This document shows, one piece after another, positions 1 through 15,920 of a stretch of 17,898 nt of DNA. Source of the stretch: a virus (Duplodnaviria > Heunggongvirae > Uroviricota > Caudoviricetes); the IMG/VR virus record IMGVR_UViG_648276670_000009, positions 1-17,898 of that record; one strand, written 5' to 3'. Within the stretch, counting starts at the first letter, position 1. The number at the start of each line of letters is the position of its first letter. The position numbers were made by a program, and so were the translations under genes. The notes under the pieces were generated by a model that saw only the letters and a program-made list of their open reading frames with translations, made no database searches and was not told where the DNA came from.

Positions 1-401
<401 letters not shown>

Positions 402-541
402 TCGATTACTGTTTTTGTAAACGCACCGCCATTATATCTGCCGCGAAGGTACGCCATTGCAAACGCAAGGATTGCCCCGATGCCTTGTTCCTTTGCCGCG
501 AGAATGGCGGCTAACAGGTCATGTTTTTCTGGCATCTTCAT
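402..541 (-). pseudogene. S: Holin S (lambda S105/S107-like), 5' fragment of ~47 codons truncated by the IS insertion
   Basis: ORF 329..541 (-) begins [47 protein letters not shown], which I recall as the lambda S N-terminus; after codon 47 the sequence diverges into IS sequence. Confidence 0.8.
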
Positions 542-1077
542 GTCTTACCCCCAATAAGGGGATTTGCTCTATTTAATTAGGAATAAGGTCGATTACTGAT
601 AGAACAAATCCAGGCTACTGTGTTTAGTAATCAGATTTGTTCGTGACCGATATGCACGGGCAAAACGGCAGGAGGTTGTTAGCGCAACCTCATGCCACCC
701 GCTTTCACGAAGGTCATGTGTAGAAGGCCGCAGCATAACTATCACTGATGAATCCAGGATAGCCAGTGGCTACGGCCAAGTTTGGGTTGTGGCGGTCGGT
801 GCTGAACTCCGACTTAATGACGATAGGCGTGTACCGACGCCTCGTTTTACTTCCTCCGCTTTCACGGCTTCACCCTAGACCAGCTTTACGAAATCCTCGT
901 AAACCTAACCGCGGCAGATATGACCGGCACGGTGTGCCATATCACGGACCGGCGGGTGTCTCGTTCACCTGATTAACGCATCAGCCTGCGTATTCACCAC
1001 AACGATAAGAGCACTGCGCGGCACCTTTCACCAATTCCGCGAGGTCTGCGGGTTCAATGCTCTTACCTGTTGTGCAA

Positions 1078-1118
1078 ACAAAAAAGCCACCGTTGCAACT
1101 TAAGAGTCACTAACGGCA
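1078..1118 (-). terminator. tR'-like intrinsic terminator just downstream of the late promoter
   Basis: Minus-strand GCTGCCGTTAG...AACGGTGGC hairpin (9-bp stem with two G-U pairs) followed by TTTTTTGTTT; lies ~10-45 nt downstream of the putative PR' start. Confidence 0.5.
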
Positions 1119-1130
1119 GCTTACCCTCTA

Positions 1131-1160
1131 ATTATGGCTAAATGGCTAATTGCATGTCAA
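1131..1160 (-). promoter_or_regulatory. Late promoter PR'-like (Q-utilisation region expected here)
   Basis: Minus strand TTGACA (1160..1155), 18-nt spacer, CATAAT (1136..1131); the -35 overlaps the last codons of Q and the -10 sits just after the Q stop. Position corresponds to lambda PR'. Confidence 0.5.
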
Positions 1161-1656
1161 GGTTTTTAACAGCAACATGCTTAACTTTCTCAACACGTTT
1201 ACGCATTTTGAAAGCATTTTGCATTGGCTGGTATAAAACAAATAATGACGCCTTCAGGATGTCGTCAATTTCGTTTCTACAGGTTGCCAGTGAAGGTTTT
1301 CTCCATCCCTCGCCACCACGTCCACACATCTTGCGTGGCTTTGCAGTCGCGTGATAGTAGGATGCAATTGCTCGCTTAGATGAACCATGAGCGTAGTAGC
1401 TGAGGAGGATGCCAAAGGCTTTCTTGTCAATGTACATGACGGAATCGACGACCTGAGAAATCAACATTCCATCATCATCATTACACATTGGCCTTGTCAT
1501 AACTCTTCCCGGCTCTACGCTCTCCATGAACTTCGCTATTACGCTGCTCATGCGCTTTTCCAGGCGACCTGAATAAACCCATGCGCCCCACAGTTCAAGC
1601 CAGCCATTCAGCCAATCGTGCTGCTCTTTGGTGAGGTTTAGTTCTCTTATGCCCAT
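1138..1656 (-). CDS. Q: Late-gene antiterminator Q (non-lambda Q type)
   Basis: 172-aa ORF in the Q position (after ninI, before PR'/tR' and S). Sequence is unlike lambda Q; the family assignment rests on position plus vague recall of Q21/933W-type Q proteins. Confidence 0.55.
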
Positions 1657-2318
1657 GCGCCTTCTCCCTGTACCTGAATCAATGTGAGGTTTCCGCAGAA
1701 CACCGCGCCGGTATCGATATACATCTGGTTGGCAAATTTGAGTGGTTTCACTGCTGGCGTATGACCAAAGATGAACGTGTCCGCTCCTTTGATTTCTTTC
1801 ACGATCCCGTCTTGTGAGTTGCTGATTCGTTCGCGGTTCCAGATTACCTGCTGATGATCAACTGGCTTTCCAAATTCGTATTCGTCACAAGGATAATCGG
1901 CGTGGCAGATGACATATTTTTTATCTTTGCTCACCAGTTCGATGATTAGCGGAAGTTCATCTGCTTTATGGGCAAGAGCTTTAGCCAGAATTTCTTTGTC
2001 GTAATCGAGATTAAAGAACCAGCCACCGCCATTAAGCTGCCAGTGATTAACGTTTCCACGCTCTGATAAGCCATCAATCATCATGTGCTCATGGTTTCCA
2101 CGTACAGCTCTGAACCAGGGGAATGTGATTAATTCCAGGCATTCGACGTTCTCTGTACCGCGATCAACCAAATCGCCCACTGAGATAAGCAGGTCTTTTT
2201 TGGTGTCGAATACTATCGTCTCCAGTTTTTTCATCAGGTTCGTGTAGCATCCGTGCAGATCGCCAACTACCCAAATATTTCGGTATTTGCTGCCATCAAT
2301 TTTTTCGTAATAGCGCAT
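1647..2318 (-). CDS. ninI: NinI Ser/Thr protein phosphatase (lambda PPase-like)
   Basis: From [25 protein letters not shown]...GNHE, the calcineurin-like phosphoesterase motifs GDLHG, GDLVDRG, GNHE are present and the sequence is near-identical to recalled lambda orf221. Start chosen at the MRYYEK ATG (2318) with GGAG 8 nt upstream; the upstream in-frame extension overlaps ninH. Confidence 0.85.
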
Positions 2319-2502
2319 CTCTTTCACTCCATCCGCGATGAACCATGAGAACGTCGTTGACGATGGCGTGCATTTTCCCGTCTTTATCATCAACGTATTT
2401 TCTGACCGTACCGCGACTACATTTCAGTCTGCGTGCTACTTCTGTCTGGTTTCCGTATGCTTCAACGAGCATGTCTGGAATGGTTTTTACTGAGAACGTC
2501 AT
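2296..2502 (-). CDS. ninH: NinH
   Basis: 68-aa [40 protein letters not shown]..., recalled as lambda NinH; start overlaps the ninG stop (ATGA). Confidence 0.75.
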
Positions 2503-3110
2503 GCGGCCTCACTTCTGCTATTTCGCAGGTCTTTGAGTTTCTGCTGATACTCCGCCTTGATGGCCCTGCACTCTTCGACAGTCCAGCGATGGCGGTTATG
2601 GTTTGATTCGATTTCGTCTACTGCTTCCTGCCCGATGCGATTAATCAGTTCGACGCGATACGGAACGAGATTTCCGCTTTTGTGCTGGTTGCACACCACG
2701 CATTGCTTGTGAATATTGCGTTCATCAAATCGGAGTTGAGGTTCCGCAGCAGTTGTCCGGTAATGTCCGGCATCCCACTGAGCAGACGTGAGCGTTCCGC
2801 ACGAGATACATGGTAAGTCGCGGTCTCTTTCTCTGATGAAGGCGTTTACGGCTTGTTGGGCTTGTTTAATCCAGTAACTGCGGGGCTTTAAGGCGAGTTT
2901 TCGAATCTTAAGTTTATCTTTCTGTTTCTGCTCCTCTCGTCGTCGTTTCTTCTCTGCTGCTTTTTCCGCTTTTTCGCGTTCTTTGCTTCGTCGTTCGAGT
3001 GCTATCTTGGTTCCACACTCTGGAGAGCACCACCACTGATTAGCGAATGCAGGGTGAAACCATTCCCGACATTCATCGTTTTTACATCGTCTTCGCGCTG
3101 GTTTAGCCAT
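2499..3110 (-). CDS. ninG: NinG/Rap recombination-promoting structure-specific endonuclease
   Basis: 203-aa [25 protein letters not shown]...; Cys/His-rich, lysine-rich segment; matches recalled lambda NinG (204 aa) and its position. Confidence 0.8.
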
Positions 3111-3279
3111 CGTCTTCTTCCTCGTACATTGAGCTATTCGGATCGCTCATCAGTTCTGCGCAGCAGTGCTCACACACGTGAACTTCCAGCACATGCAGCT
3201 TCTGACCGCAGTTAGCGCACGTTAAAGCCCGCTCGACGCTTTCTTTCTGGTATTGAATGGATTGTGATGGGCTAAGCAT
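3103..3279 (-). CDS. ninF: NinF
   Basis: 58-aa ORF not in the ORF track (below its size cut-off): [58 protein letters not shown]; start overlaps the upstream stop (TAATG), stop overlaps the ninG start. Recalled as lambda NinF-like. Confidence 0.65.
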
Positions 3280-3644
3280 TATTGGATTCTCTGCATCATG
3301 AGAAAGACAATCATGGCGGCGCGGAGGGGATTTTCATGTATAGCTCGCTTAGATTTACAGTAGGCCACACCGCGTGCACCCCACTCGTCTTCATCGAGAT
3401 TGATAATGCTAATCCTGTATTTTTCAATAATCGGCCATGCGTCTGCTGGGTTTGCGCATGGGTTAAAGGATCCGCGCTCAACTTCTACTTCAACTGCGTC
3501 TCCGTTTACAATGTCTCCCTCAAATGAGACAAACACCATATCGCCATTCTCACCTTCTTTGTAATCCGGTGATCCGTTATGAATGGCTTCGAATACCGCC
3601 ACGTTAATTTCAAAATCACTTAACTGTGAATAATCCATTGTCAT
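3279..3644 (-). CDS. Nin-region protein, NinX-like (unknown function)
   Basis: ORF 3279..3680 (-); start placed at the ATG at 3644, which overlaps the upstream ninE-like stop (ATGA), giving [24 protein letters not shown]... Family name is a guess from position in P22-type nin regions. Confidence 0.5.
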
Positions 3645-3817
3645 TTCCTCGCACGATATCTTAGCCACCGGATATCCCACAGGTGAGCTGTGTAATTGAA
3701 GGTTTTTACGTCAGATTCTTTTGGGATTGGCTTGCGTTTATTTCTGGAGCGTTTCGTTGGAAGGTATTTGCAGTTTTCGCAGATTATGTCGGTGATACTT
3801 CGTCGCTGTCGTCTCAT
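3641..3817 (-). CDS. NinE-like small nin-region protein
   Basis: 58-aa [58 protein letters not shown]; start overlaps the ninB stop. Recalled as lambda/P22 NinE (possibly NinD) family. Confidence 0.6.
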
Positions 3818-4254
3818 GCCGCCCTGTCTCCCCATCGCGCTTTCCATTCGAGAGCCAGTCGCGCTTCGTCTGACCACTTAACGCCACGCTCTGTACCGAA
3901 TGCCTGTATAAGCTCTAATAGCTCCGCAAATTCGCTTACACGCATCCTGCTGGTTGACTGGCCTATTACCACAAAGCCATTCCCGGCAAGGTTAGGAACA
4001 ACGTCCTGCTGCTTTAATGCTGCGGTAAACACACACTTCCAGCTTTCTGCATCCAGCCAGCGACCATGCCATTCAACCTGACGAGAGACGTCACCTAAGC
4101 AGGCCCATAGCTTCCTGTTTTGGTCTAAGCTGCGGTTGCGTTCCTGAATGGTTACTACGATTGGTTTGGTTGGGTCTGGAAGGATTTGCTGTACTGCGTG
4201 AATAGCGTTCTGCTGATGTGCTGGAGATCGAATTTCAAAGGTTAGTTTTTTCAT
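3814..4254 (-). CDS. ninB: NinB recombination protein (lambda Orf family)
   Basis: From [56 protein letters not shown]... near-identical to recalled lambda NinB (146 aa). Start at ATG 4254. Confidence 0.85.
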
Positions 4255-4270
4255 GACTTCCCTCTCCCCC

Positions 4271-4301
4271 AAATAAAAAGGCCTGCGATTACCAGCAGGC
4301 C
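4271..4301 (-). terminator. tR2-like intrinsic terminator between replication genes and the nin region
   Basis: Minus-strand hairpin GGCCTGC(loop 8 nt)GCAGGCC followed by TTTTTATTT; located between the helicase stop (4328) and the ninB start (4254), the position of lambda tR2. Confidence 0.6.
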
Positions 4302-4327
4302 TGTTATTAGCTCAGTGATGTAGATGG

Positions 4328-5704
4328 TCATACGTCAGCCCCTTGTGCATATCGTCTGCCACGTGCAGCGGGTGCATTTGATGTTGTGCAAATCTGTCTG
4401 GCTTCATCCTGGTCACATGCAACAAAGTGTCCGTTGCAGAACCGCTGGTAAACCGTACCAAGCGAGCCAAAACGGTTTTTCGTCACAATGATTTCAGCAA
4501 ATGGCGCGGCGCTACTGTTCTCGTCATATACCGCTTCCCGATAGAGCATGATGATTGAGTCTGCGTCCTGTTCAATGCTTCCTGAATCACGCAAATCTGC
4601 GTTTGTCGGGCGTTTATTTGGTCGCTTCTCAACATCGCGCGAAAGCTGACTTAGGGAGATAACTGGCGTTTTCAGGTCTTTCGCCATCGCCTTCAGGCTT
4701 CCGGAGATGTGAGCAATTGCGAGGTCGTTGCGGTCTGCTTTCGGCTTCTCAATCAGGCCAAGATAATCCGCCATGATGAGTGACAGGTTTGGATTTTCCT
4801 GTTTGTGCCGTTCTGCGATTGAGCGTATTTCTTCGACCGATAACCGCGAGGCATCGACTACCCATACATCCAAATCTGCAAGCTGACTCATGCCGTTAGC
4901 AACACGCGCCCAGCCTTCGTCATCCATCGATGCAGGATTTCGCAGTACGCTAACCGACATCCTCCCGGCGTTGGCAATGCTTCGCTCTGCAATCTGCAAT
5001 GCGCTCATTTCCATTGAGAAAATCAATACCCCGCGCCGGACGTCAGAACCAGGAATAACGCGGCTTGCAACGCCTTCGGCAATCTTCAGCGCCAGTTCGG
5101 TTTTCCCCATACCAGGACGAGCAGCGATTATCACAAGGTCTTCTGCGTTCATCCCTCCGGTGATAGCGTCAAGTTCTTCGATTCCGGTCTTCAGGGTATC
5201 TGACTCTTCTCCGTTCCTCAGACGCCTGTCAAGCGTGTCAGTGTAGTCGGTGATGATTTCCCCTAACCGTACAGGTTTAACCTCGTCACGTGGCTTTCTG
5301 ATGGCTGAAAGACGCTTTACAAGCTCATCCATCGCCTGACTCGATGTATCGATGGTTCCGCTCTGAATTGGTTCACGCATTTCATCCATGATTTCCAGCA
5401 CCAGACGGCGGTGATAGTTATCCGCGACCATTCCGGCATATCCCTTCAGGTTTGCGGCACTCGGGCAGTTTTTGCTGGTCATCAGGATTGACGTGAAATG
5501 CTCCTCTCCGCACGCCTCGGCAACCATCAGCGCATCGATTAGGTTTCTGTTTCTCGCCTGCTTGCGGATAACCTCGAAGGCTTTCCGGTAGAGCGGAATT
5601 GAAAACGCTTCCGGCTCCAGCGTTGCCAGAACGTCGCTGGCGGTTGGTGTTAATCCACCAATCAGCAGGCCACCGATAACGCTCGCTTCGATATCCTGTC
5701 TCAT
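4328..5704 (-). CDS. DnaB-family replicative helicase (P22 gp12-like)
   Basis: 458 aa; Walker [13 protein letters not shown], Walker B-like [11 protein letters not shown]-terminal domain resembling DnaB ([15 protein letters not shown]); start overlaps the stop of the upstream O-like gene. Confidence 0.8.
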
Positions 5705-6648
5705 GCAATCCCCCTGTCTGCAAACTTCCCTTCCCGTACTCCCGTTAACGAATCTTCCCTCAGCAGGTAATCAAAATCTGCCGTCCAGCCCGTGTCGTTG
5801 TCTCCGAAGTAAAACGGCTTGGCCTGATGCACAAACGCCCTGACATACGCTCTGAAACCGTCCACGTTTGGCGTTTTCAGTTGCGGGATGATTTTCTTCA
5901 GGCGGCGTTTGCGTTTCTCGTTGACCGCAACAGCATGTGGAAGTCTGTCACCGACTTCGGTGTTGTAGGCGTTCAGGAAGGATTCGTAGTCGATTCGTTC
6001 TGCCTTGCGACGTTCAGGTTTAACCTGCCCATCGCCTCCCCCATTGGGGGGTAGGGGGGTATTATTTATATTCTTGTTAATACCTTCTTGTTCATGATGT
6101 GCGGTTGTTTGTGCGGCTTCATGTGCGCTTTCATGTGTGGCATGTACGCTGAAAGCCGCGCCATTACTGGCTTCATCATGTGCGGCATCATGTGCGGTTG
6201 TTTGTGCGGCTTCATGTGCGGGTGAATTGTCCATTTTTTGAGCATATTCATGGTAATTTGTGATGGTGATCACACGACCTTTTTGCTTCTCTCCATCAAT
6301 GGAGATCATCCCCTCTTTCACAAAAACCTGAAGCATCCGCTCAACCTGATCGCGGCTTGCTGGCTTGCCATGCCTGTCGCATAACTGAAGACCTAAATCA
6401 GCTGCTGTCACAACCAGTTGACCGGGTTGCAGATGCCATTCATGACCTTTGAAATTCGCTTTGTATGGCTTTCTGGCGGCATTCAGGAGAAGGTTTTCCC
6501 ACAGGGTGCGAAGATAAACATCTTTCGCCCATGACTGTTTCAGAATGCTCCGGTACAACGGAATGTAACCAGTTTTCTGGTTCTCCATCCTGTTGCTCCT
6601 GCGCTCGTGTGCGGCGCTGAAATCGTAGATTTTTGCTGTATTGCTCAT
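5701..6648 (-). CDS. Replication initiator (lambda O / P22 gp18-like) with internal iteron-encoded linker
   Basis: 315 aa; N-terminus [10 protein letters not shown] resembles lambda O MTNTAKILNF; central repetitive segment [18 protein letters not shown]...[13 protein letters not shown] is encoded by the direct repeats at 6066..6235; sits upstream of the helicase as in P22 18-12. Confidence 0.7.
6066..6235. repeat. Putative replication origin iterons inside the initiator gene
   Basis: Repeated TCATGTGCGG / CATGTGCG(G/C/T)-type units, with a duplicated ~40-nt block (catcatgtgcggttgtttgtgcggcttcatgtgcg). In lambda, ori iterons also lie within O. Confidence 0.6.
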
Positions 6649-6650
6649 AA

Positions 6651-6923
6651 CTACCTGCCTTGACGAAAGACCTTAAGAACATCGTTAAACTGACTTACGG
6701 ATATGTCTTCTTTGAGCAGCTTTTCCAGAAATGCGTTTGGAATGAACGTATATCCCTCCTCTTTTGGTAGAGACGGGAGCAACGCCCTCGCCTCAGCCTT
6801 CAGAAGCTCAGTTCTGGCAACTTTCACAAAAGAGATTTGAGTTCTTTCATCAATGGAACGAAGGAAGCGCAAACGCTTAGCTTCTTTGTGTGTATCAGGT
6901 GGATTAAAGCCTTTGTTTCGCAT
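6651..6923 (-). CDS. Hypothetical protein (90 aa) between cII and the initiator gene
   Basis: In the long ORF 6651..7235 only the part from the ATG at 6923 (MRNKGFNPPDTHKE...) lies downstream of cII; GAGGT sits 7 nt upstream of it. No recognised family. Confidence 0.45.
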   Translation of the reverse strand: MRNKGFNPPDTHKEAKRLRFLRSIDERTQISFVKVARTELLKAEARALLPSLPKEEGYTFIPNAFLEKLLKEDISVSQFNDVLKVFRQGR

Positions 6924-6934
6924 ATAATTACCTC

Positions 6935-7002
6935 GTTGGATGTTGTTAAAATTCCATTTGTATTTGATCAGAACGCTCGGTCTTGCACACCGGGCGTTTT
7001 TT
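6935..7002 (+). ncRNA. OOP-like antisense RNA overlapping the cII 3' end
   Basis: Plus-strand TATAAT at 6923..6928 and, ~65 nt downstream, a hairpin CGCTCGGT(loop)ACCGGGCG followed by TTTTTTATT (6974..7002) inside the 3' end of cII, the arrangement of lambda oop. Ends are approximate. Confidence 0.45.
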
Positions 7003-7242
7003 ATTGGTGAGAATCGAAGCAACTTGTCGTGCCAATCGAGCCATGTCGTCGTCGACGACGCCCCATTCAAGAACAGCAAGCAGCATTGAGAACTTTGGAA
7101 TCCAGTCCCTCTTCCACCTGCTGATCTGAGACTTATCAACGCCAACAGCTTCCGCTGTCTTCTCAGTTCCAAGCATTGCGATTTTGTTAAGCAACGCACT
7201 CTCGATTCGTAGAGCCTCGTTGCGTTTGTTTGCACGAACCAT
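6946..7242 (-). CDS. cII: Transcriptional activator CII
   Basis: From MVRANKRNEALRIESALLNKIAMLGTEKTAEAVGVDKSQISRWKRDWIPKFSMLLAVLEWGVVDDDMARLARQV..., near-identical to recalled lambda CII. The ORF-track extension upstream of this Met is not used. Confidence 0.9.
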   Translation of the reverse strand: MVRANKRNEALRIESALLNKIAMLGTEKTAEAVGVDKSQISRWKRDWIPKFSMLLAVLEWGVVDDDMARLARQVASILTNKKRPVCKTERSDQIQMEF

Positions 7243-7321
7243 ATGTAAGTATTTCCTTAGATAACAATTGATTGAATGTATGCAAATAAATGCACACACC
7301 ATAGGTGTGGTTTAATTTGAT

Positions 7322-7353
7322 GCCCTTTTTCAGGGCTGGGATGTGTAAGAGCG
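7322..7353 (-). promoter_or_regulatory. nutR (boxA + boxB) N-utilisation site
   Basis: Minus strand reads CGCTCTTACA (boxA) then GCCCTGAAAAAGGGC (boxB hairpin), between cro and cII. Confidence 0.8.
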
Positions 7354-7361
7354 GGAATGTC

Positions 7362-7577
7362 TTAAGCGGCTTTGTGTTCCGGCGGGAACACGTCATCAAG
7401 ACTGACTTTTGCGCCTAACTTGTTTAGGCATGCAACAAGAGCGCGGCATGTTTTAAGGTCTGGGAAGCGACGACCAGATTCCCAATGCCCAATAGCTCCC
7501 TGTGTGCATCCAACCGCCTTAGCAAGTGTTGTTTGAGAGATATTCAGTGACTCTCGATATTTTCGTAGGTTGCTCAT
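7362..7577 (-). CDS. cro: Cro-like repressor (XRE-type HTH, non-lambda specificity)
   Basis: Start at the internal ATG 7577 (MSNLRKYRESLNISQTTLAKAVGCTQGAIGHWESG...), preceded by GGAGGG; divergent from cI across an operator region; an HTH similar to the N-terminal domain of the adjacent cI. Confidence 0.75.
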   Translation of the reverse strand: MSNLRKYRESLNISQTTLAKAVGCTQGAIGHWESGRRFPDLKTCRALVACLNKLGAKVSLDDVFPPEHKAA

Positions 7578-7688
7578 ATGCCCTCCATAGTAACCATGAG
7601 ACAATAATACGATATGTACTTTTGGAATGCAAACAAAAAATACATCTTGTGCATGGATGGTTTTAGTACAGAGCGTAATAATAAGGAT
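7578..7688. promoter_or_regulatory. OR-like divergent promoter/operator region (PR toward cro, PRM toward cI)
   Basis: On the minus strand, TTGCAT (7632..7627), 17-nt spacer, TATTAT (7609..7604) upstream of the cro leader; several GTAC / AATAC-containing partial palindromes are candidate operator half-sites. Operator boundaries are not resolved. Confidence 0.55.
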
Positions 7689-8348
7689 ATGAAAATGAAA
7701 TGGTATGAACTGGCTAGATCCAGAATGAAAGAGCTCGGCATAACTCAAGAGAAGTTAGCTGAAGAGCTTGGTATGACGCAGGGTGGAATTGGTCACTGGT
7801 TGCGCGGATCTCGTCATCCATCTCTTGACGAGATTGGTGTGGTGTTTAAATACCTTGGTATTGATAACGTCTCATTCAACCACGACGGTACATTTTCACC
7901 TGTTGGCGAATACTCATCTGCCCCCGTTAAAAAACAATATGAGTACCCTGTTTTTTCTCATGTTCAGGCCGGGATGTTCTCGCCTGAGCTTAGAACCTTT
8001 ACCAAAGGTGATGCGGAGAGATGGGTCAGCACAACCAAAAAAGCCAGTGATTGTGCGTTTTGGCTTGAAGTTGAAGGTAATTCCATGACCGCGCCAACAG
8101 GATCCAAGCCAAGCTTTCCTGACGGGATGTTAATTCTCGTTGACCCTGAGCAGGCTGTTGAGCCAGGTGATTTCTGCATAGCCAGACTTGGTGGTGACGA
8201 GTTTACCTTCAAGAAACTGATCAGGGATAGCGGTCAGGTGTTCCTACAGCCACTAAACCCGCAATATCCAATGATTCCATGCAATGATAGCTGTTCCGTA
8301 GTAGGGAAAGTTATCGCCAGCCAGTGGCCTGAAGAGACATTTAGTTAA
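7689..8348 (+). CDS. cI: CI repressor: lambda-like C-terminal S24/LexA-type autocleavage domain fused to a divergent N-terminal HTH domain
   Basis: C-terminal ~135 aa ([39 protein letters not shown]...[15 protein letters not shown]) near-identical to recalled lambda CI; the N-terminal ~90 aa is unlike lambda. Start could be 7689 or 7695 (MKMKW / MKW); the track ORF starts further upstream at 7614. Confidence 0.85.
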
Positions 8349-8380
8349 CAGCCTCACCACTCTAAAACACACAACAATAA

Positions 8381-8409
8381 CCCGACCTTAGCGTCGGGTT
8401 TTCTTTTTC
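8381..8409 (+). terminator. Intrinsic terminator downstream of cI
   Basis: CCCGAC(loop CTTAGC)GTCGGG hairpin followed by TTTTCTTTTT, 33 nt after the cI stop. No rex-like genes lie between cI and pL. Confidence 0.6.
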
Positions 8410-8473
8410 CAAAATATAAACCCATTAAATACAAAGTGTTATAAAAAACTAATTATATTTAGAACATTTTGTA

Positions 8474-8502
8474 TTGACTCGATAAAGTACAAATCGTACT
8501 AT
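8474..8502 (+). promoter_or_regulatory. pL-like early leftward promoter (with OL operators upstream and overlapping)
   Basis: TTGACT (8474..8479), 17-nt spacer, TACTAT (8497..8502), followed by ATCAGCAGGACGCACT as in the recalled lambda pL transcript start; AATACAAA(A/G)TGT motif in both orientations at ~8427..8472 and an AGTAC-N5-GTACT palindrome at 8487..8501 are candidate operators. Confidence 0.7.
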
Positions 8503-8542
8503 TTAGCCATCAGCAGGACGCACTAACCGCCATGAAGGTGAG

Positions 8543-8572
8543 GCTCTTAAAAATTTAGCCCTGAAGAAGGGC
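8543..8572 (+). promoter_or_regulatory. nutL (boxA + boxB)
   Basis: GCTCTTAA (boxA) followed by GCCCTGAAGAAGGGC (boxB stem-loop), upstream of N. Confidence 0.8.
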
Positions 8573-8682
8573 AGCATTCAAAGCAGAAAGCTTTGAGTAG
8601 CGCGAAATGCAGCTGCAAGACAGCAACCGTGGAGATAAGCATCACGGCGCGTTACTCAAAGCTAACTGACAGGAGAATCCAG

Positions 8683-9009
8683 ATGGATGCACAAACACGC
8701 CGCCGCGAACGTCGCGCAGAGAAACAGGCTCAATGGAAAGCAGCAAATCCCCTGTTGGTTGGGGTAAGCGCAAAACCAGTTAACCGCCCTATTCTCTCGC
8801 TGAATCGCAAACCGAAATCACGAGTAGAAAGCGCACTGAATCCGATAGACCTTACGGTGCTGGCTGAATACCACGAACAGATTGAAAGCAACCTGCAACG
8901 TATTGAGCGCAAGAATCAGCGCACATGGTACAGCAAGCCACGCAGTGAAATGGGTGTGACTTGTGTTGGTCGCCAGAAAATGAAATTAGGCAGCAAGCCA
9001 CTTATTTGA
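8683..9009 (+). CDS. N: Antitermination protein N
   Basis: From MDAQTRRRERRAEKQAQWKAANPLLVGVSAKPVNRPILSLNRKPKSRVESALNPIDLTVLAEYH..., near-identical to recalled lambda N (Arg-rich boxB-binding motif); AGGAG RBS before ATG 8683. The track ORF start at 8593 is not used. Confidence 0.9.
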   Translation: MDAQTRRRERRAEKQAQWKAANPLLVGVSAKPVNRPILSLNRKPKSRVESALNPIDLTVLAEYHEQIESNLQRIERKNQRTWYSKPRSEMGVTCVGRQKMKLGSKPLI

Positions 9010-9018
9010 GGTGATGGA

Positions 9019-9651
9019 ATGAGCAATAGAATTGATGGAGAGATTATCAGGGGCGTAATTAATGACCCTCGCCTTTTTCCAGGAATAAAGCGCTCAAGAG
9101 CAGGAGCATCTCAGCTCTTTGGTGAGCGCATAGTCAAAGGCGGGAAGCTTATACAAGAATGCGACTTCGAGCTAACTCCTCCAGTAAAAAGCTGGTACTC
9201 AAAGGAAATTGATGGGGTTTGGCATTGGGTTGAGGGTTGCGATCACTGCAATGGTTCTCCTCAGGACTGGGCGTATTGCAGATGCGAAAAGCATGATGTT
9301 TGTGTTGATTGCGGAATTGATAGAGAGCACGCGTCAACGTCACAAACCATAGCTGGAATGGGTGCTGTCTGGGGATGTCGTGGTGGATGGCGATGCAATG
9401 ATTGCCAAGAGAAAATTAATCAGGAACGCCTAGCAGCAGCTGAGGCAAGAATTATTCCTGACGATGAATATGATGAGCTGGATTTTTGGCGCAGAGATGA
9501 GGCTCGCTGCCCATGGTGTAAGGCTGAAATATCCACCGATGAATCATACGACGCCTGCGAAGAAGAGCATACATGCTATGAATGCGAGCGTAAGTTCAAG
9601 CTTACAGCTGAGCATTCAGTATCGTGGACAACGATTCGCTCAATCAAATAG
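9019..9651 (+). CDS. Hypothetical Cys-rich protein (multiple CxxC pairs; probable zinc-binding)
   Basis: 210 aa with CDHC, CRC, CVDC, C-x5-CNDC, CPWC, C-x5-CYEC motifs; GAGGTG RBS; first gene after N, in the slot occupied by ral/sieB in lambda. No recognised family. Confidence 0.6.
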   Translation: MSNRIDGEIIRGVINDPRLFPGIKRSRAGASQLFGERIVKGGKLIQECDFELTPPVKSWYSKEIDGVWHWVEGCDHCNGSPQDWAYCRCEKHDVCVDCGIDREHASTSQTIAGMGAVWGCRGGWRCNDCQEKINQERLAAAEARIIPDDEYDELDFWRRDEARCPWCKAEISTDESYDACEEEHTCYECERKFKLTAEHSVSWTTIRSIK

Positions 9652-9696
9652 GCCGCATAGTCGGCCTTCTTTTGGCATAAACAACATGGGGTAAAA

Positions 9697-10023
9697 ATGA
9701 AAGTTTTAATGGTTTATGAAAATGTTCCAGAGTCGACTGAAATCTATATTTTTGATGCCAATGAAGATGAAGTTAACGATTTAAAATTGTCTCACGGCAA
9801 TTACACAAATGCTAATTGTGATGAAAGCATCGAAAAAGCACTATCACGTGTTCTTGTCAGAATCAGCGATCCAGAACATTGTGATAATGATTGGCTTTCT
9901 TATTGTGGAGCGGTAAAAACTGATGCAGGAAAATGGAGTAAAAGTAAAGTTGATAACTCAACTCCAATCATTATGAAAGATAGTGATATTGAAATGGTAA
10001 TAATAACCGGAATGATTATGTAG
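9697..10023 (+). CDS. Hypothetical small acidic protein (108 aa), AT-rich moron-like gene
   Basis: ATG ORF with visibly lower GC than its neighbours; ~20 Asp/Glu versus ~10 Lys/Arg by my count; followed by a 9-bp-stem hairpin (10033..10060) and an intrinsic terminator. No recognised family. Confidence 0.5.
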   Translation: MKVLMVYENVPESTEIYIFDANEDEVNDLKLSHGNYTNANCDESIEKALSRVLVRISDPEHCDNDWLSYCGAVKTDAGKWSKSKVDNSTPIIMKDSDIEMVIITGMIM

Positions 10024-10129
10024 GCTGCGAATAAGCACTGTGTATTCATTCAAACGAGTGAATACACGGAGCAATGTCGCTCGTAACTAAACAGGAGCCG
10101 ACTTGTTCTGATTATTGGAAATCTTCTTT

Positions 10130-10156
10130 GCCCTCCTATGTGAGGGCAATTTTTTT
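10130..10156 (+). terminator. Intrinsic terminator (tL-type) upstream of the 322-aa gene
   Basis: GCCCTC(loop CTATGT)GAGGGC followed by AATTTTTTT. Confidence 0.6.
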
Positions 10157-10168
10157 GATGGAGGATAT

Positions 10169-11137
10169 ATGAGTGAAGTAACAGACTTAGTTGTTATTGA
10201 AAAAGCAAATGCAATGACTGTATTTCAGTCTGCAGACCAGATTGAAGAAATCCTTCAAAAGGTTGAACGTGAAGTTATGTCCTTTGTGCCTGATATCACA
10301 ACGGCAAAGGGCAGAAAGGAGATCGCTTCTCTGGCGTATAAAGTTGCGCAGACGAAAACATATCTCGATGGTCTTGGCAAAGACCTTGTTGCTGAACTGA
10401 AGGAAATTCCAAAGCTAATTGATGCTAACCGCAAGACAGTGCGTGATCGCCTTGATGAGCTGAAAGCCAAGGCGCGCCAGCCTCTTACTGATTATGAGGA
10501 AGAACAGGCGCGGATTAAAGCCGAAGAAGAAGCTAAGGCAGCAGCTGAAGCTCTCGCAAAGCAAATTGAGTCTGACCATGAAATAGCTATTTTGATGGAT
10601 CGCGAATTTGACCGCCAAAGAGAAGAGGCAAGACTCAAAGCGGAGCAGGAAAAGCGAGAGCATGAAGAACGCTTAAAAAAAGAAGCTGAAGAGAAAGCCA
10701 GAGCTGAAGCCGAAGAAAAGGCAAAAGCCGAAATTGAAGCAGCAGCAAGGCGAGAAGCAGAAGCTAAGGCCGCAGCGGAACGTGCAGAGCGTGAACGCAT
10801 TGAAGCCGAGCAACGAGCACAGCGCGAAGCAAAAGAGGCAGCAGAACGAGCTGAAAGAGAAAAGCAGGCGGCAATTGAAGCAGAACGCCGAAAAGCACAG
10901 GAGGAGGCTGAACGAATCCGGCGCGAGGCTGAAGCAAAAGAGCAAGCCAGAATAGCAGAAGAAAAAAGAATCAAGGAAGAGGAAGAGTGTAGAGCAAAGG
11001 ATAAAGCTCACCGGAAAGAAGTAAATAACAAAATACTTGCTGACCTTATCAAGGTTGGCGCATCAGAAGATGTTGCTAAAAATATCATAACAGCCATCGT
11101 AAAAGGCGAAGTATTCGCAACAAAAATAACCTACTAA
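10169..11137 (+). CDS. Hypothetical protein with a long charged Glu/Ala/Lys/Arg-rich alpha-helical (coiled-coil-like) central region
   Basis: 322 aa from ATG 10169 (GGAGG RBS 5 nt upstream); the track ORF starts earlier at 10115. Central ~150 aa is low-complexity EEAKAAAEALAKQ...AEEKAKAEIEAAARREAEAKAAAERAERERIEAE; the globular N-terminus and C-terminus are not recognised. Confidence 0.65.
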   Translation: MSEVTDLVVIEKANAMTVFQSADQIEEILQKVEREVMSFVPDITTAKGRKEIASLAYKVAQTKTYLDGLGKDLVAELKEIPKLIDANRKTVRDRLDELKAKARQPLTDYEEEQARIKAEEEAKAAAEALAKQIESDHEIAILMDREFDRQREEARLKAEQEKREHEERLKKEAEEKARAEAEEKAKAEIEAAARREAEAKAAAERAERERIEAEQRAQREAKEAAERAEREKQAAIEAERRKAQEEAERIRREAEAKEQARIAEEKRIKEEEECRAKDKAHRKEVNNKILADLIKVGASEDVAKNIITAIVKGEVFATKITY

Positions 11138-11161
11138 TAAAACCAACATAAGGAACCACCC

Positions 11162-11293
11162 ATGATTTACGCAATCGCGGGAGGCGCTCGCATGGGTGCC
11201 TTCCAACTAAATGAATCTTTACTTGAACGAATCACCCGTAAATTACGTGACGGATGGAAAAGAGTTGAGGTCTTATTATGCGCAATGAAATAG
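11162..11293 (+). CDS. cIII: CIII-like protease (FtsH) inhibitor, divergent C-terminus
   Basis: 43-aa ORF (below the track cut-off) MIYAIAGGARMGAFQLNESLLERITRKLRDGWKRVEVLLCAMK; core ESLLERITRKLRDGWKR matches recalled lambda CIII. Confidence 0.7.
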   Translation: MIYAIAGGARMGAFQLNESLLERITRKLRDGWKRVEVLLCAMK

Positions 11294-11430
11294 CCATCAA
11301 TCACCAGATGCTTCGTGCTGCACAGAACAAAGCAGTAATAGCCAGATTTATTGGTGATTCCAAAATGTGGCTTGAAGCAAATAAAGCGATGAAATCAGCT
11401 ATCAACCTTCCATGGTATCGCAGGAAATGA
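11278..11430 (+). CDS. kil: Kil-like host cell-division inhibitor
   Basis: 50-aa ORF MRNEIAINHQMLRAAQNKAVIARFIGDSKMWLEANKAMKSAINLPWYRRK; resembles recalled lambda Kil (…TFIGDEKMF…); overlaps the cIII stop; position matches lambda cIII-kil. Confidence 0.55.
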   Translation: MRNEIAINHQMLRAAQNKAVIARFIGDSKMWLEANKAMKSAINLPWYRRK

Positions 11431-11504
11431 GTTTTACAGATAACTGGTCAGACGAAGAATTCATTCGTCAGATGAAAGAATTAATCGGTAACGAAGGAGA
11501 TATT

Positions 11505-11675
11505 CATGTCACTTGCAACCACAGTGAAGGAGAGCAAGTTACAGAGACGCATGTACACGCAGCAGGCGTTAATGTATCGCCAGAAGGGAGATCGTGAAGG
11601 TGTTCGCGTATTTTTAAATGCGGCAAAGACTGAAGTATTAAATCAGCGTTATTTCCTTGGGCCATGTCCATTCTG
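11505..11675 (+). CDS. Hypothetical small protein (56 aa) upstream of erf (Arf-like position)
   Basis: ATG 11505 preceded by AGGAG at 7-nt spacing; MSLATTVKESKLQRRMYTQQALMYRQKGDREGVRVFLNAAKTEVLNQRYFLGPCPF. An alternative overlapping frame (track ORF 11412..11597, or ATG 11427 coupled to the kil stop) cannot be excluded. Confidence 0.45.
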
Positions 11676-11686
11676 AGAACAAACAT

Positions 11687-12292
11687 ATGAGCAAAGAATT
11701 TTACGCAAAACTGGCAGCTATTCAGGAGAACTTGAACGCGCCAAAGAATCAGTACAACTCATTCGGTAAATATAAATACAGAAGCTGCGAAGACATTCTT
11801 GAAGGCGTTAAGCCGTTACTGAATGGTCTGTTTTTATCAATCAGCGATGAAGTTGTGTTGATTGGTGATCGGTATTACGTGAAAGCCACGGCAACTATTA
11901 CCGATGGCGAAAACAGTCATACGGCAACCGCTCTTGCACGAGAGGAAGAAAGCAAGAAAGGAATGGATTCTGCACAAGTTACGGGAGCTACAAGCTCTTA
12001 TGCACGCAAGTATTGCCTCAATGGTTTGTTCGGCATTGATGATGCGAAAGATGCAGATACCGACGAGCATAAACATCAGCAGAACGCAGCAGCAAAGCAA
12101 TCAAAACCATCACCTACACCTGAACAGGTTCTAAAAGCATTCACTGACGCAGCATTGCAGAAAAACACCGTAGAAGAGCTTAAACAGGCGTTCGCCAAAG
12201 CGTGGAAGATGCTCGAAGGCACACCTGAGCAGCACAAAGCGCAGGACGTTTACAACATCAGACGAGACGAATTAGAAGGAGCGGCTGCTTAA
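11687..12292 (+). CDS. erf: Erf-family single-strand annealing recombination protein (P22 Erf-like)
   Basis: From MSKEFYAKLAAIQENLNAPKNQYNSFGKYKYRSCEDILEGVKPLLNGLFLSISDEVVLIGDRYYVKATATITDGENSH..., closely matching recalled P22 Erf. The track ORF begins at a TTG at 11657; the ATG at 11687 is used. Confidence 0.85.
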   Translation: MSKEFYAKLAAIQENLNAPKNQYNSFGKYKYRSCEDILEGVKPLLNGLFLSISDEVVLIGDRYYVKATATITDGENSHTATALAREEESKKGMDSAQVTGATSSYARKYCLNGLFGIDDAKDADTDEHKHQQNAAAKQSKPSPTPEQVLKAFTDAALQKNTVEELKQAFAKAWKMLEGTPEQHKAQDVYNIRRDELEGAAA

Positions 12293-12675
12293 TGGCACAT
12301 TCGATTACTGTAAGACTAAACAAGCCCGCAAGAGAGTTTCAGGCCGGGGAAAATATCGGATTCAACATCCGTGCTGGCGTTCAGTATTACGATCGCCAGA
12401 CAAAAAAGAAAGAATGGACAAACTACAGCGCCGTTGTATTTGCCAAGCCGGGAGCGCAAGCGGATTACTACCGTAGTGTTCTTGTTGAAGGTGGCATTGT
12501 GGAAATTACCGGAGAAAACATCAGGGTTGATGTTTATCAGGGGCAAAATGGTCAATCAATCACTCTTGAATTACTGAATGCAAAGATTGGATTTGCAACT
12601 TCAGGAAACAGCCAACAGCAGCAAAGTAGTAACCAGCAGAACACTCCTGTATACGACGATTCCATCCCATTCTGA
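12292..12675 (+). CDS. Single-stranded-DNA-binding protein-like (acidic C-terminal tail ending DDSIPF)
   Basis: 127 aa; Gln/Ser-rich linker and terminal ...PVYDDSIPF resemble the SSB C-terminal protein-interaction tail (DDDIPF); start overlaps the erf stop (TAATG). Confidence 0.65.
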   Translation: MAHSITVRLNKPAREFQAGENIGFNIRAGVQYYDRQTKKKEWTNYSAVVFAKPGAQADYYRSVLVEGGIVEITGENIRVDVYQGQNGQSITLELLNAKIGFATSGNSQQQQSSNQQNTPVYDDSIPF

Positions 12676-12698
12676 TTTAGAAAAATAAGGATTTAATT

Positions 12699-12992
12699 AT
12701 GCCAGCGCCTCTGTATGGTGCGGATGACGCGCGCCGCTGTTCCGGCAATTCCGTATCGGAGGTGCTGGATAAATTCAGAAAAAACTACGACCGGATAATG
12801 TCGCTACCGCAGGAAACGAAAGAGGAAAAGGAATTTCGCCATTGTATATGGCTTGCAGAGAAAGAAGAGCGCGAGCGAATTTACCAGACATCAATCCGAC
12901 CATTCCGCAAAGCAACATATACCCACTTCCCTGAAATCGACCCGCGCCTGCGTAATTACCGCTCACGCTATGGCGCTATCAGTAATAACTGA
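12699..12992 (+). CDS. Hypothetical protein (97 aa)
   Basis: ATG ORF with AAGGA upstream; no recognised family. Confidence 0.5.
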
Positions 12993-13002
12993 GGAATTTA
13001 CC

Positions 13003-13170
13003 ATGAGAGGACTTGCATACAATCCCGGCATTCTTCCGGCAGAAATGATTATTCGCCAACGCGTAAAGCCAATGCCATCGAGAGAGGAATTGCTTAAGAG
13101 AAATTCTTTTCCATCAGTGAATCAAAACAAATATCTGAATGCGATGTGGCGCAAAGGAGGCAGCCAGTGA
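13003..13170 (+). CDS. Hypothetical protein (55 aa)
   Basis: ATG 13003 preceded by GAGGAA; lies in the frame of track ORF 12853..13170, whose upstream part overlaps the previous gene. Confidence 0.45.
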
Positions 13171-13811
13171 ATAACCGCTTTTACATGATGTGCTTGCGTG
13201 AAACTGTGGGTAATAACGCTTCATTCCATTGCCATAACGGCAATGGTTACAGTTCTAATATCGATCGCGCTCATGTTTACACGCTGGAAGAAGCCCAAAA
13301 AGCCTGGAATTGTGGTCGAGATATCGATCAGCCTGTTTGCGCTGATAGCGTGGATGCAATGGCAGTGTGGCACGTTGATTGCCAGTACATCCCTACAGAA
13401 AGCCTGATTGAGTCAGATTGCACTGCGTATGTGGCCTACAAAAAAGGTAGCTGGAACGGCAACGATGTTTACTGGCTTCAACACGGTGGATTGCCAACAG
13501 ATGACTTCAGTAAAGCGACCATCTTTAGCGTCGCCAACAAAAACGAACCAGGAATAGTTTGGTTGCCATTTTCCATTGCTGATGCAGCAAAGCGCAGGAC
13601 GTTCAATATCAATAACTTTAACCGCAGAACAATGGTTCAGGGCGCAGGTTTGGTCATGCCTGACTGGTTGAAAGAGCAGAACAGAAGAAAGAAGTCGCGA
13701 AGCGGGAAGGTGCGTTGGAATTGTCCGCATTGCGGAAAAATCTCCTGGCAGTACAGCCCATATGATTTTGAAGGCTGTAGTGATTACAACTGTGAAGGAT
13801 GGCGAGAATGA
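13167..13811 (+). CDS. Hypothetical protein (214 aa) with C-terminal Cys-rich zinc-ribbon-like motif
   Basis: GTG 13167 preceded by AAAGGAGG at 6-nt spacing and overlapping the upstream stop (the track ORF starts at 13146); C-terminus WNCPHCGK...CSDYNCEGW. No recognised family. Confidence 0.55.
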
Positions 13812-14295
13812 CAATTGACTATCAGTCACTGCGTGAGGCGGCAGAGAAAGCAACGTGGGGAGACTGGGACTCATATAAACACACCGTGGCGCACGTGGTT
13901 ATGAGGTCCGACTAAGTAGTCAGGCCATTGCGCAACACGTTCTGAAAAACAACGCTGAATTTATTGCTGCCTTTAATCCAAAGGTTGCTTTGGCACTACT
14001 GGATGAACGGGAAAGAAACCAGCAATACATCAAACGCCGCGACCAGGAGAACGAGGATATTGCGCTAACGGTAGGGAAGCTGCGCGTTGAGCTTGAAGCA
14101 GAAAAACAGCGGGCAAAAGTTCTATTTATGGAAAATGCTCGGCTTAAGTCAGGTATAGCCGGTCTGATACACCTCGGTATTCGATATGCAGATGTTGAGG
14201 TCATGAAAATTGCTGGAGATGCCCAGCTTTCTACCCCATGCACTGACAGCATCATAAACAGCATTGCAACAGGCATTCGCATCAAAGGAGAGTAA
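13799..14295 (+). pseudogene. ea22-like gene, disrupted (N-terminal 38-codon piece and C-terminal piece in different frames)
   Basis: ATG 13799 encodes [38 protein letters not shown] then stops at 13913..13915; a different frame continues open from ~13916 (...QAIAQHVLKNNAEFIAAFNPKVALALLDERERNQQYIKRRDQENEDIALTVGKLRVELEAE...) to 14295. Both pieces resemble recalled Ea22-family proteins. Confidence 0.5.
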
Positions 14296-14497
14296 TATGA
14301 GCAGGAATACGGGTTTGTAAAAGATAACGCTTGTGAAAATGCTGAATTTCGCGTCGTCTTCACAGCGATGCCAGAGTCTGTAGTGTCAGATGATGACCGT
14401 ACTCAAACATCGGGTTGAGTATTATCTTACTGTTTCTTTACATAAACATTGCTGATACCGTTTAGCTGAAACGACATACATTGCAAGGAGTTTATAA

Positions 14498-14779
14498 ATG
14501 AGTATCAATGAGTTAGAGTCTGAGCAAAAAGATTGGGCGTTATCAATGTTGTGCAGATCCGGTGTCTTGTCTCCATGCAGACATCACGAAGGTGTTTATG
14601 TAGATGAAGGTATAGATATAGAGTCGGCATACAAATATTCCATGAAGGTTTATAAGTCTAATGAAGACAAATCCCCATTCTGCAATGTGCGAGAAATGAC
14701 TGATACCGTGCAAAATTATTATCACGAGTACGGTGGAAACGATACTTGCCCTCTCTGTACAAAATATATAGATGATTAA
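14498..14779 (+). CDS. Hypothetical small Cys-containing protein (93 aa), AT-rich moron-like gene
   Basis: ATG with AAGGAG at 8-nt spacing; low GC; five Cys including CPLC; bracketed by a ~200-bp non-coding leader and an intrinsic terminator. Confidence 0.55.
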   Translation: MSINELESEQKDWALSMLCRSGVLSPCRHHEGVYVDEGIDIESAYKYSMKVYKSNEDKSPFCNVREMTDTVQNYYHEYGGNDTCPLCTKYIDD

Positions 14780-14797
14780 ACCAAATATTACATAACA

Positions 14798-14826
14798 ATC
14801 CTCGCACTCGCGGGGATTTCTTTTAT
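14798..14826 (+). terminator. Intrinsic terminator after the 93-aa gene
   Basis: ATCCTCGC(loop ACTC)GCGGGGAT followed by TTCTTTTAT. Confidence 0.55.
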
Positions 14827-14837
14827 ATGGGGATAAT

Positions 14838-15638: not shown

Positions 15639-15695
15639 TGCGGATTTCTTTTATCTGAACTCGCTACGGCGGGTTTTGTTTTATGGAGATGATAA

Positions 15696-15863
15696 ATGCA
15701 CTTCCGAGTCACAGGAGAATGGAATGGAGAGCCATTCAACAGAGTTATCGAAGCAGAGGACATCAACGACTGCTATGACCACTGGATGTTGTGGGCGCAG
15801 ATAGCACATGCAGACGTAACCAATATTCGAATTGAAGAACTGAAAGAACACCAAGCCGCCTGA
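15696..15863 (+). CDS. Hypothetical small protein (55 aa), commonly seen near xis in enterobacterial prophages
   Basis: ATG 15696 with GGAGATG upstream; MHFRVTGEWNGEPFNRVIEAEDINDCYDHWMLWAQIAHADVTNIRIEELKEHQAA; below the track cut-off. Confidence 0.5.
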   Translation: MHFRVTGEWNGEPFNRVIEAEDINDCYDHWMLWAQIAHADVTNIRIEELKEHQAA

Positions 15864-15877: not shown

Positions 15878-15885
15878 TGCCTGAT

Positions 15886-15901: not shown

Positions 15902-15920
15902 CTATTCGGAGATAGCACTC

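Follow-up and report, generated by a model that had tools for sequence, protein, structure and literature searches.

A probable replication origin of 12-bp direct repeats inside the O-type initiator gene of a P22/CUS-3-like lambdoid prophage of Escherichia coli

The DNA considered here, referred to as the window, is the whole stretch of 17,898 nucleotides (nt) given by positions 1 to 17,898 of IMG/VR virus record IMGVR_UViG_648276670_000009, and represents the early region of a P22/CUS-3-like lambdoid prophage of Escherichia coli. On its minus strand, the open reading frame (ORF) list and translation identify a gene for an O-type replication initiator of 315 amino acids (aa), at 5701..6648 with the start at 6648. 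Directly downstream is the gene for a DnaB-type replicative helicase of the P22 gene 12 type (4328..5704, minus strand), and the stop codon of the initiator and the start codon of the helicase share a 4-nt overlap. Within the initiator gene, between the regions coding for the N-terminal and C-terminal domains, lies an array of short direct repeats, the position expected of an origin that is housed in its initiator gene. This array and the sequences that adjoin it are the subject of this report.

The initiator is a member of the Phage_rep_O family, with a match to Pfam PF04492 over residues 20-132 (E 3.4e-15, 56.8 bits versus a cut-off of 28.7) and to PHROG 345, 'replication initiation O-like' (E 3e-100). 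The presumed origin-binding domain at the N-terminus, hereafter the N-domain (ORF residues 21-141; 6226..6588, minus strand), is predicted from the Pfam match and an AlphaFold2 model to be a winged helix. The model, with a mean predicted local distance difference test score (pLDDT) of 75, has helices at residues 44-59, 82-88 (H2) and 99-111 (the recognition helix), and a wing hairpin at residues 115-129. A Foldseek comparison of the model with the PDB returned weak and generic matches (E >= 0.01) that were all to winged-helix DNA-binding proteins, which supports the predicted fold class only.

Homologues of the initiator gene were compared in two sets. The diverged set was drawn from Enterobacterales represented by one genome per species (GTDB), where 47 loci were found; adding two phage genes and the gene of the window to the 41 usable ones gives the 44 homologues referred to below (loci L002, L003 and L089-L134, and the window), which have 67-87% identity in the N-domain. 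The close set consists of 64-65 near-identical genes from IMG/VR, where 499 hits exist, and was used for polymorphism, not divergence. All 44 homologues share an N-terminal extension of 20-24 codons that ends in RSNR and precedes the sequence MENQK (6589-6648 in the window); because of this conservation, the annotation of phage JEP4, where the gene starts at MENQK, is probably too short. The N-terminus of the window initiator, MSNTAKI, resembles the MTNTAKI of lambda O, where the longer sequence MTNTAKILNF is the recognition signal for ClpX.

The array occupies codons 143-185 (6093-6221) and consists, on the gene strand, of eight in-phase 12-nt units with the core CCGCACA, split into two blocks. 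Block 1 (6174..6221, minus strand) encodes 16 aa and has four head-to-tail units, CCGCACATGAAG at 6210-6221, CCGCACAAACAA at 6198-6209, and CCGCACATGATG at both 6186-6197 and 6174-6185. Block 2 (6093..6140, minus strand) has the four units CCACACATGAAA (6129-6140), GCGCACATGAAG (6117-6128), CCGCACAAACAA (6105-6116) and CCGCACATCATG (6093-6104), and in most close relatives the first of these carries CCGCACA. A period of 12 is reported by Tandem Repeats Finder at 6110-6141 and 6174-6221, and a repeat search recovers the TCATGTGCGG family as well as a 50-nt higher-order family. In addition, a 31-nt stretch of block 2 is identical to part of block 1 at an offset of 93 nt; this exact inter-block repeat is offset by one unit, and is lineage-specific. 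The CCGCACA core is present seven times in the 17.9-kb window, six times within 6098-6221 and always on the minus strand, against an expectation of 2.3, and a count of seven was reached in none of 200 shuffles. No inverted repeats with a seed of at least 6 were found in 6020-6260, and the units are 12-bp direct repeats rather than a set of at least four dyad-symmetric iterons of about 18-20 bp spaced 20-25 bp apart.

The first-pass annotation of this DNA had reported direct repeats at 6066..6235 in an O-like gene, and had quoted the repetitive peptide that they encode on the minus strand. The ORF, its translation and the repeat search all agree with this description of repeats and peptide, but the span was drawn too wide, as the units extend over 6093-6221 and the remainder takes in most of an AT-rich tract. 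The exact iteron count and spacing, for which a repeat-finder analysis had been proposed, come to eight 12-nt units in two blocks of four with a 33-nt spacer, and the AT-rich element that was to be sought beside them is present at 6061-6092, the least stable stretch of the gene. The absence of repeats from homologous functional initiator genes, with replication starting elsewhere, had been named as grounds for abandoning the idea; all 44 homologues, however, carry an array of the same kind at the same place.

The two-block design is a constant feature of the family. The linker that joins the two protein domains is always 35 or 43 codons long, corresponding to 3+3 or 4+4 units in 44 of 44 genes and never to an asymmetric arrangement. 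Changes between three and four units are scattered over the tree of N-domains, and several of them are apparently independent; the equal block sizes suggest that the two blocks are functionally coupled. The possibility that they evolve in concert was also considered, and was rejected on the finding that in-register identity is 0.75 within a genome and 0.76 between genomes. Likewise rejected was an autoregulatory role for what would be a ninth site, a CCGCACA at 6608-6614 (minus strand) some 390 nt upstream of the array, as it is not found in any of the 43 other homologues and probably occurs there by chance.

The spacer between the blocks (6141..6173, minus strand) is 33 nt long in 44 of 44 homologues. 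Its first 21 nt in the sense of the gene form a conserved central element, AAGCCAGTAATGGCGCGGCTT (6153-6173, minus strand), and its last 12 nt contain a degenerate unit, GCGTACATG, that is out of phase with the others. The central element encodes (E/K)(A/P)SNGAA(F/L), and its four-fold-degenerate third positions are conserved in 42/44, 39/44 and 41/44 genes, as compared to a baseline of 0.52, the mean major-allele frequency at four-fold-degenerate sites of invariant residues in the N-domain. It also recurs in the Salmonella phage S.Inf 5-2, despite a different iteron core there. A consensus scan of 5950-6330 found no match to a DnaA box, IHF site, Fis site or GATC in the central element; the sole matches in the scanned region were a DnaA-like box with one mismatch at 6314-6322, and degenerate Fis-like sequences in A/T tracts, which are not informative. 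As a matter of geometry only, the 45 bp from the last site of block 1 to the first site of block 2 equal two 12-bp steps plus 21 bp, or two helical turns, and the two blocks would therefore share the same rotational progression.

On the C-terminal side of the iterons, and abutting the array in 44 of 44 homologues, is a 32-nt AT-rich tract that is a putative DNA-unwinding element (6061..6092, minus strand; codons 186-196; AACAAGAAGGTATTAACAAGAATATAAATAAT in the sense of the gene). At 22.5% GC, 6060-6099 is a 40-mer of lower stability than any other in the gene, and it ranks fifth by low stability in the window. Two copies of AACAAGAA are found 14-15 nt apart at 6061-6095. The corresponding tract of S.Inf 5-2 contains a perfect 15-nt tandem (AACAAGAAGGTAGTT twice), and those of P22 and HK446 contain CAAAAGACAATA twice; such repeats within the AT-rich tract could be repeats of the unwinding element. 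Next to the tract lies a C6/C6/G5 sequence, ACCCCCCTACCCCCCAATGGGGGAGG (6033..6060, minus strand), encoding TPLPPNGGG at the start of the C-terminal module. An alignment with P22, HK446 and S.Inf 5-2 shows that the C6/C6/G5 tract is common to the P22 and HK446 origins, and it falls inside the region homologous to the annotated rep_origin of P22.

Two observations on incomplete initiators touch this part of the gene. Loss of one C from the first poly-C run (C6 to C5; 6044-6058, ACCCCCCTACCCCCC in the sense of the gene) shifts the reading frame and leaves a product of 204 aa with the N-domain and linker. This variant was seen in 2 of 80 IMG/VR loci (L006 and L033) and in protein cluster P0001, which has 51 member sequences, and it could reflect decay of the prophage or a sequencing error in the homopolymer, or else the shortened protein could be a form that only binds DNA. 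Many database entries for the initiator are marked 'partial' and end in or just after the repeat and linker region (151-208 aa; P0001-P0012 and others), which suggests that the repeats or the poly-C tract are frequent break points for contigs or gene calls.

The array is conserved as DNA. Among the 302 units in the 44 genes, C is found at position 2 in 301, G at position 3 in 298, C at position 6 in 291, A at position 7 in 285 and T at position 8 in 268, giving conservation of 89-99.7% at these positions, and positions 9-12 are nearly free. Positions 2, 5 and 8 of the unit are third codon positions. Codon choice in the linker is skewed, with a CAT to CAC ratio of 288:5 for His codons versus 102:88 in the rest of the same genes. 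In the close set, polymorphism peaks in the linker: across 64 near-identical genes, its 44 codons yield 41 variant codons that are nonsynonymous and 15 that are synonymous, compared with 6 and 23 for the 121 codons of the N-domain and 9 and 43 for the 107 codons of the C-terminal domain. The cores are spared by this polymorphism; in block 1 the core hardly varies across 65 genes whereas unit positions 8-12 do, and summed minor-allele counts are 17 over 56 core columns versus 65 over 40 non-core columns.

These sequence patterns indicate that selection holds the DNA cores, and that the hypervariable linker peptide is under relaxed constraint; they are as expected for sites selected as DNA, and contrary to expectation for a selected peptide repeat. 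Because synonymous sites of the cores are constrained while the peptide varies freely, the His/Ala/Glu-rich linker appears to be a by-product of the DNA sites, which lie in frame with a period of 12 nt, or four codons, and so force a repetitive x-Ala-His-x sequence. The peptide is a passenger of these sites, and its only role is probably that of a flexible tether. A metal-binding ladder, with His at every fourth residue, was also considered for the linker, and is unlikely given that the peptide is hypervariable and that homologues have Pro/Asp/Glu-rich repeats instead.

At unit position 5, where Ala or Glu codons have their third base, neither C nor T occurs in any of the 44 genomes. Forty of them are uniform, with either A or G in every unit, and each of the other four has a single exception, so that the genomes can be divided into 21 of A-type and 23 of G-type. 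The type is perfectly associated with three residues of the N-domain, namely 82, 100 and 118 in ORF numbering, which in the window are A82 (6400-6402), D100 (6346-6348) and D118 (6292-6294, all minus strand). Residue 82 is A or P as opposed to S or T, and residue 100 is D as opposed to H, with His in all G-type genomes. In the AlphaFold2 model, residue 82 is at the start of H2, residue 100 is at the start of the recognition helix, and residue 118 is in the wing, an arrangement suggestive of three candidate specificity determinants on the predicted DNA-contact surface. Core variant and N-domain co-vary and are co-inherited, and a G-type gene, that of locus L116, is nested among A-types on the N-domain tree.

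More distant relatives carry arrays at the same place that are built from other sequences. The initiator of S.Inf 5-2 (46% identity in the N-domain, with a C-terminal half as in the window) has 3+3 12-nt units with the core CGAT(G/A)AA, and its blocks form 34-nt repeats. The Enterobacter phage ENT1 (47% N-domain identity) has two 32-nt blocks of GTCGAA-type units. For the Lactobacillus phage phiAT3 (32% N-domain identity), five 11-nt repeats are found, and as 11 is not a multiple of 3 the peptide that they encode is not periodic.

The helicase gene and the 3' part of the initiator gene point to P22. The helicase has a Pfam DnaB_C match (E 9e-78) together with a DnaB N-domain, and over 458 aa its amino-acid sequence is 90% identical to that of P22 gp12. 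The initiator has a C-terminal domain (5704..6032, minus strand, starting at about residue 197) of the P22 gp18 type, which is presumed to function in helicase recruitment. Homology to gp18 is confined to the C-terminal 144 aa, which are 53% identical to the C-terminal 144 aa of gp18, and does not extend over the whole length of the initiator or to the part that would set origin specificity.

At the nucleotide level, identity to HK446, ST104, Nil2, 2851 and BTP1, phages in which the 5' halves differ, is 95-97% over the last 375 nt of the gene (5701-6075). For the 5' part (6065-6640), identity is 75-80% to phages of Klebsiella and Yersinia in which the C-domain is lambda-type and a P loader is present. 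Both homology breakpoints, at about 6075 for HK446 and ST104 and at about 6065 for the Klebsiella and Yersinia phages, are inside the AT-rich tract. A C-domain of the lambda O family is present in 41 of the 44 genes, 34 by direct match to lambda O and 7 by way of homologous C-domains. The downstream ORF was lambda-P-like in all 41 genes tested except L122, which, like the window, has a P22-type C-domain followed by a DnaB-type helicase (75% identical to that of the window). In L128, a different C-domain is found and yet the downstream gene is P-like, the sole mismatch of C-domain type and partner among the homologues checked. L002 and L003 were outside this test; the downstream genes are annotated in their records as a 'replication protein' and a 'DNA replication protein P'. 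On the evidence of these homologies, the initiator is a chimera, in which an N-domain and repeats that usually accompany a lambda-type C-domain and P loader are joined to a P22-type C-domain, and the AT-rich tract is the recombination joint between a specificity module and a helicase-recruitment module. This is the classical split between origin specificity, carried by the N-domain and iterons, and helicase recruitment, carried by the C-domain and its partner.

From this anatomy and its conservation, we conclude that 6033-6221 is very likely the replication origin of the P22/CUS-3-like prophage, situated inside the gene for its own initiator (a probability of roughly 85%). The steps that follow are modelled on what is known of lambda and P22 (PMC7466680; PMC8022706). 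The winged-helix N-domain would bind the eight head-to-tail 12-bp sites, for which the family consensus is (C/G)CG(C/A)(A/G)CAT and the core in the window is CCGCACA; since the sites are direct repeats without dyad symmetry, head-to-tail binding of protomers is probable. The resulting initiator-DNA complex would destabilise the adjoining 32-bp AT-rich tract, and the C-domain of the P22 gp18 type would recruit the phage's own gp12-type DnaB helicase to the opened DNA, so that the stretch would be used as an origin. The arrangement is of a known kind, as an origin within O whose iterons impose the sequence of a linker is textbook lambda biology. The suggestions of the first-pass annotation are in keeping with this conclusion. 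An origin within O is supported by repeats that lie between the domains, beside the AT minimum, in a layout that is annotated as the origin in lambda and P22; the pairing with a DnaB-type helicase in the style of P22 genes 18 and 12, rather than with a lambda P-type loader, is borne out by the 90% identity to gp12 and the gp18-type C-domain; and a linker encoded by iterons is what synonymous-site constraint combined with a hypervariable peptide would leave.

Several points weigh against identifying 6033-6221 as an origin of this kind. Confidence in the AlphaFold2 model is only moderate and the folds found to match it do so weakly, a PDB sequence search with the initiator gave no match among solved structures, and pairwise BLASTP of the N-domain with lambda O and P22 gp18 gave nothing significant beyond the first ~65 residues (E 0.004). 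The repeats lack the dyad symmetry of the lambda, P22 and HK446 iterons, and the lambda mode of binding is not simply transferable to them. In none of the close records inspected (JEP4, CUS-3 and one Shiga toxin (Stx) 2a phage) is a rep_origin annotated here, and literature searches on the replicon, on Stx phages in connection with DnaB or P22, and on the repeat sequence found neither experimental work on the replicon nor a description of the array, the two-block symmetry, the central element or the A/G switch. In addition, the unit and codon counts are not phylogenetically independent, and few independent changes underlie the A/G co-variation; as most G-types fall within one clade, common descent could account for some of it.

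One could suppose that the repeats are a mere low-complexity linker, prone to slippage and devoid of any cis-acting role, and that the true origin lies elsewhere in the prophage. The region does encode a His/Ala/Glu-rich and probably disordered linker, the number of units varies from 3+3 to 4+4 as slippage-prone repeats do, and there are other AT-rich spots in the window. A mere linker, however, would not account for conservation at the synonymous positions of the core far above the synonymous baseline in what is the most polymorphic part of the protein. Nor would it explain why an array is always found at the same place when the peptide is not conserved across classes of N-domain, and in phiAT3 is not even periodic, or why the core variant is near-uniform within each genome and tracks residues of the DNA-binding domain. 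We regard this explanation as scarcely credible. Slightly more can be said for repeats that are bound by the initiator mainly for regulation, whether autoregulation, a roadblock to rightward transcription, handcuffing in copy control or the exclusion of related phages, rather than for opening of an origin. Plasmid iteron arrays serve both initiation and negative control, and symmetric blocks with a conserved central element go beyond the simple lambda model; the origins of Stx phages also hold extra iterons whose roles are unclear (PMC7466680). But the array abuts the AT-rich tract in every homologue and lies where the origins of lambda and P22 are annotated, the replication module showed neither a further repeat array nor a second AT-rich partner, and a regulatory role would add to origin function rather than replace it. 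A role that is chiefly regulatory is accordingly improbable.

A different question is how much DNA each initiator protomer or dimer would occupy. The binding unit may be larger than the 12-bp repeat, either a 24-bp pair of units bound by a dimer, for four sites in all, or a whole block of 36-48 bp. This idea draws on the 31-nt exact inter-block repeat of the window and the 34-nt and 32-nt block repeats of S.Inf 5-2 and ENT1, on blocks that are always equal in size, and on the correspondence of 4+4 units to four dimer sites, as in the four iterons of lambda. Half of the homologues, however, have 3+3 units, which are not divisible into dimer pairs; only an 8-nt core is conserved in each unit, with positions 9-12 near random across genomes, and the two blocks of one genome resemble each other no more than blocks of different genomes do (0.75 versus 0.76). 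A larger unit is, on balance, doubtful.

The two-block symmetry and the central element are not accounted for by the lambda model, and together with the short direct repeats they make it probable that the initiator binds its sites in a mode that differs from that of lambda. We tentatively raise the possibility that the family has a distinct O-type origin architecture, in which initiator monomers would polymerise head-to-tail, turning about 51 degrees per 12-bp step, as two equal arrays (3+3 or 4+4) flanking a 21-bp central element to which a host factor, or else a second surface of the initiator, would bind. The A/G switch at position 5 would be read by residue 100 (Asp or His) with residues 82 and 118. 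If true, this architecture would provide a natural, sequence-resolved code for origin specificity and an O-some geometry unlike that of lambda.

The full-length initiator gene is present in 272 of 5,426 complete E. coli genomes, and the replicon is also found in CUS-3/JEP4-type phages and in 48 records of Stx2a-converting phages; it is thus common, yet the origin is not annotated in the close records inspected. Stx production depends on phage replication, and the specificity of origin and initiator could therefore matter for work on toxin output. The array also illustrates cleanly how sites in DNA can shape the sequence of a protein, and the family data supply a candidate specificity pair, in which A at unit position 5 goes with Asp100 and G with His100.

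The remainder of the window is in keeping with the early region of a lambdoid prophage. The minus strand carries genes for a holin, Q, a ninI-type phosphatase and ninG/F/X/E/B, then the DnaB-type helicase and the O-type initiator, followed by a small ORF, cII and cro, and the plus strand carries genes for a cI-type repressor, N, erf and abc2. Next to the initiator, the program-made ORF list gives a 194-aa ORF with a GTG start (6651-7235, minus strand) that overlaps cII (6946-7302). A match to PHROG 2519, a phage family of unknown function, is limited to the last ~90 aa of this ORF, and the true gene is probably confined to about 6651-6923, matching a 90-aa hypothetical protein in JEP4. In the early-left region, terminal ORFs at 13146-16121 are without Pfam matches, and the right end of the window (16651-17898, minus strand) is occupied by a host gene for a cscB-like sucrose/oligosaccharide transporter of the major facilitator superfamily. 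For the segment 13146-17898, coverage of at least 80% was found in one complete E. coli genome only. The window gave no match to an integrase domain, to a tRNA gene (ARAGORN) or to an Rfam family (at the gathering threshold).

Origins of the lambdoid type combine iterons with an AT-rich tract in the middle of O (PMC7466680). As in the window, the lambda origin is inside the initiator gene, and the order is N-domain, repeats, AT-rich tract and C-domain. The lambda record annotates four 18-bp iterons in O, spaced 20, 24 and 23 bp apart, which we take from their sequence and from general knowledge to be dyad-symmetric. The window, unlike lambda, has eight 12-bp direct repeats without dyad symmetry, arranged in two blocks around a conserved 33-bp spacer, and the partner of its initiator is a phage DnaB-type helicase rather than P. 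In lambda, O assembles into the O-some, and the C-domain of O recruits the P-DnaB complex; this C-domain type, with its SSENSxESSD motif, and a P-like loader are found with the window-type N-domain and repeats in most homologues. The Stx phages 933W and P27 (six iterons) resemble the window in having a lambdoid origin within O and a variable number of iterons, but differ from it in their palindromic, lambda-like iterons and in their O and P proteins.

The closest parallels on the helicase side are P22 and phage L. Gene 18 of P22 contains four repeats of ~20 bp, and gene 18 of phage L contains six 11-bp repeats that have been read as an origin (PMC8022706). The P22 record annotates a rep_origin inside gene 18, at the position homologous to the array of the window, and P22 shares with the window the AT-rich tract, the C6/G5 tract, the gp12-type helicase and the gp18-type C-domain. 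It differs in an N-domain that is unrelated by BLASTP, and in iterons that are of the TTTACCGATCTGGTAAA type; in both P22 and HK446, the N-domains of which are unrelated, the iterons number four, are dyad-symmetric and ~20 bp long, and are spaced 23, 24 and 20 bp apart. For phage L, the putative origin comprises six imprecise 11-bp direct repeats, TGTCCAACGGA, and was inferred from sequence alone (PMC8022706). Phage L, the one earlier case noted, is like the window in that an O-like gene with a DnaB-type helicase as partner contains direct repeats that are short, and differs from it in the sequence of the repeats and in the initiator.

A further analogy, for the mode of binding only, is offered by the iteron plasmids. 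Plasmid iterons are ~17-22 bp long, lie outside the rep gene, and are bound by Rep proteins with two winged helices. In pPS10, F and R6K, winged-helix Rep monomers occupy direct-repeat iterons beside an AT-rich unwinding element, and it is this placement of head-to-tail repeats next to an AT-rich element, along with an initiator predicted to be a winged helix, that the window has in common with them.

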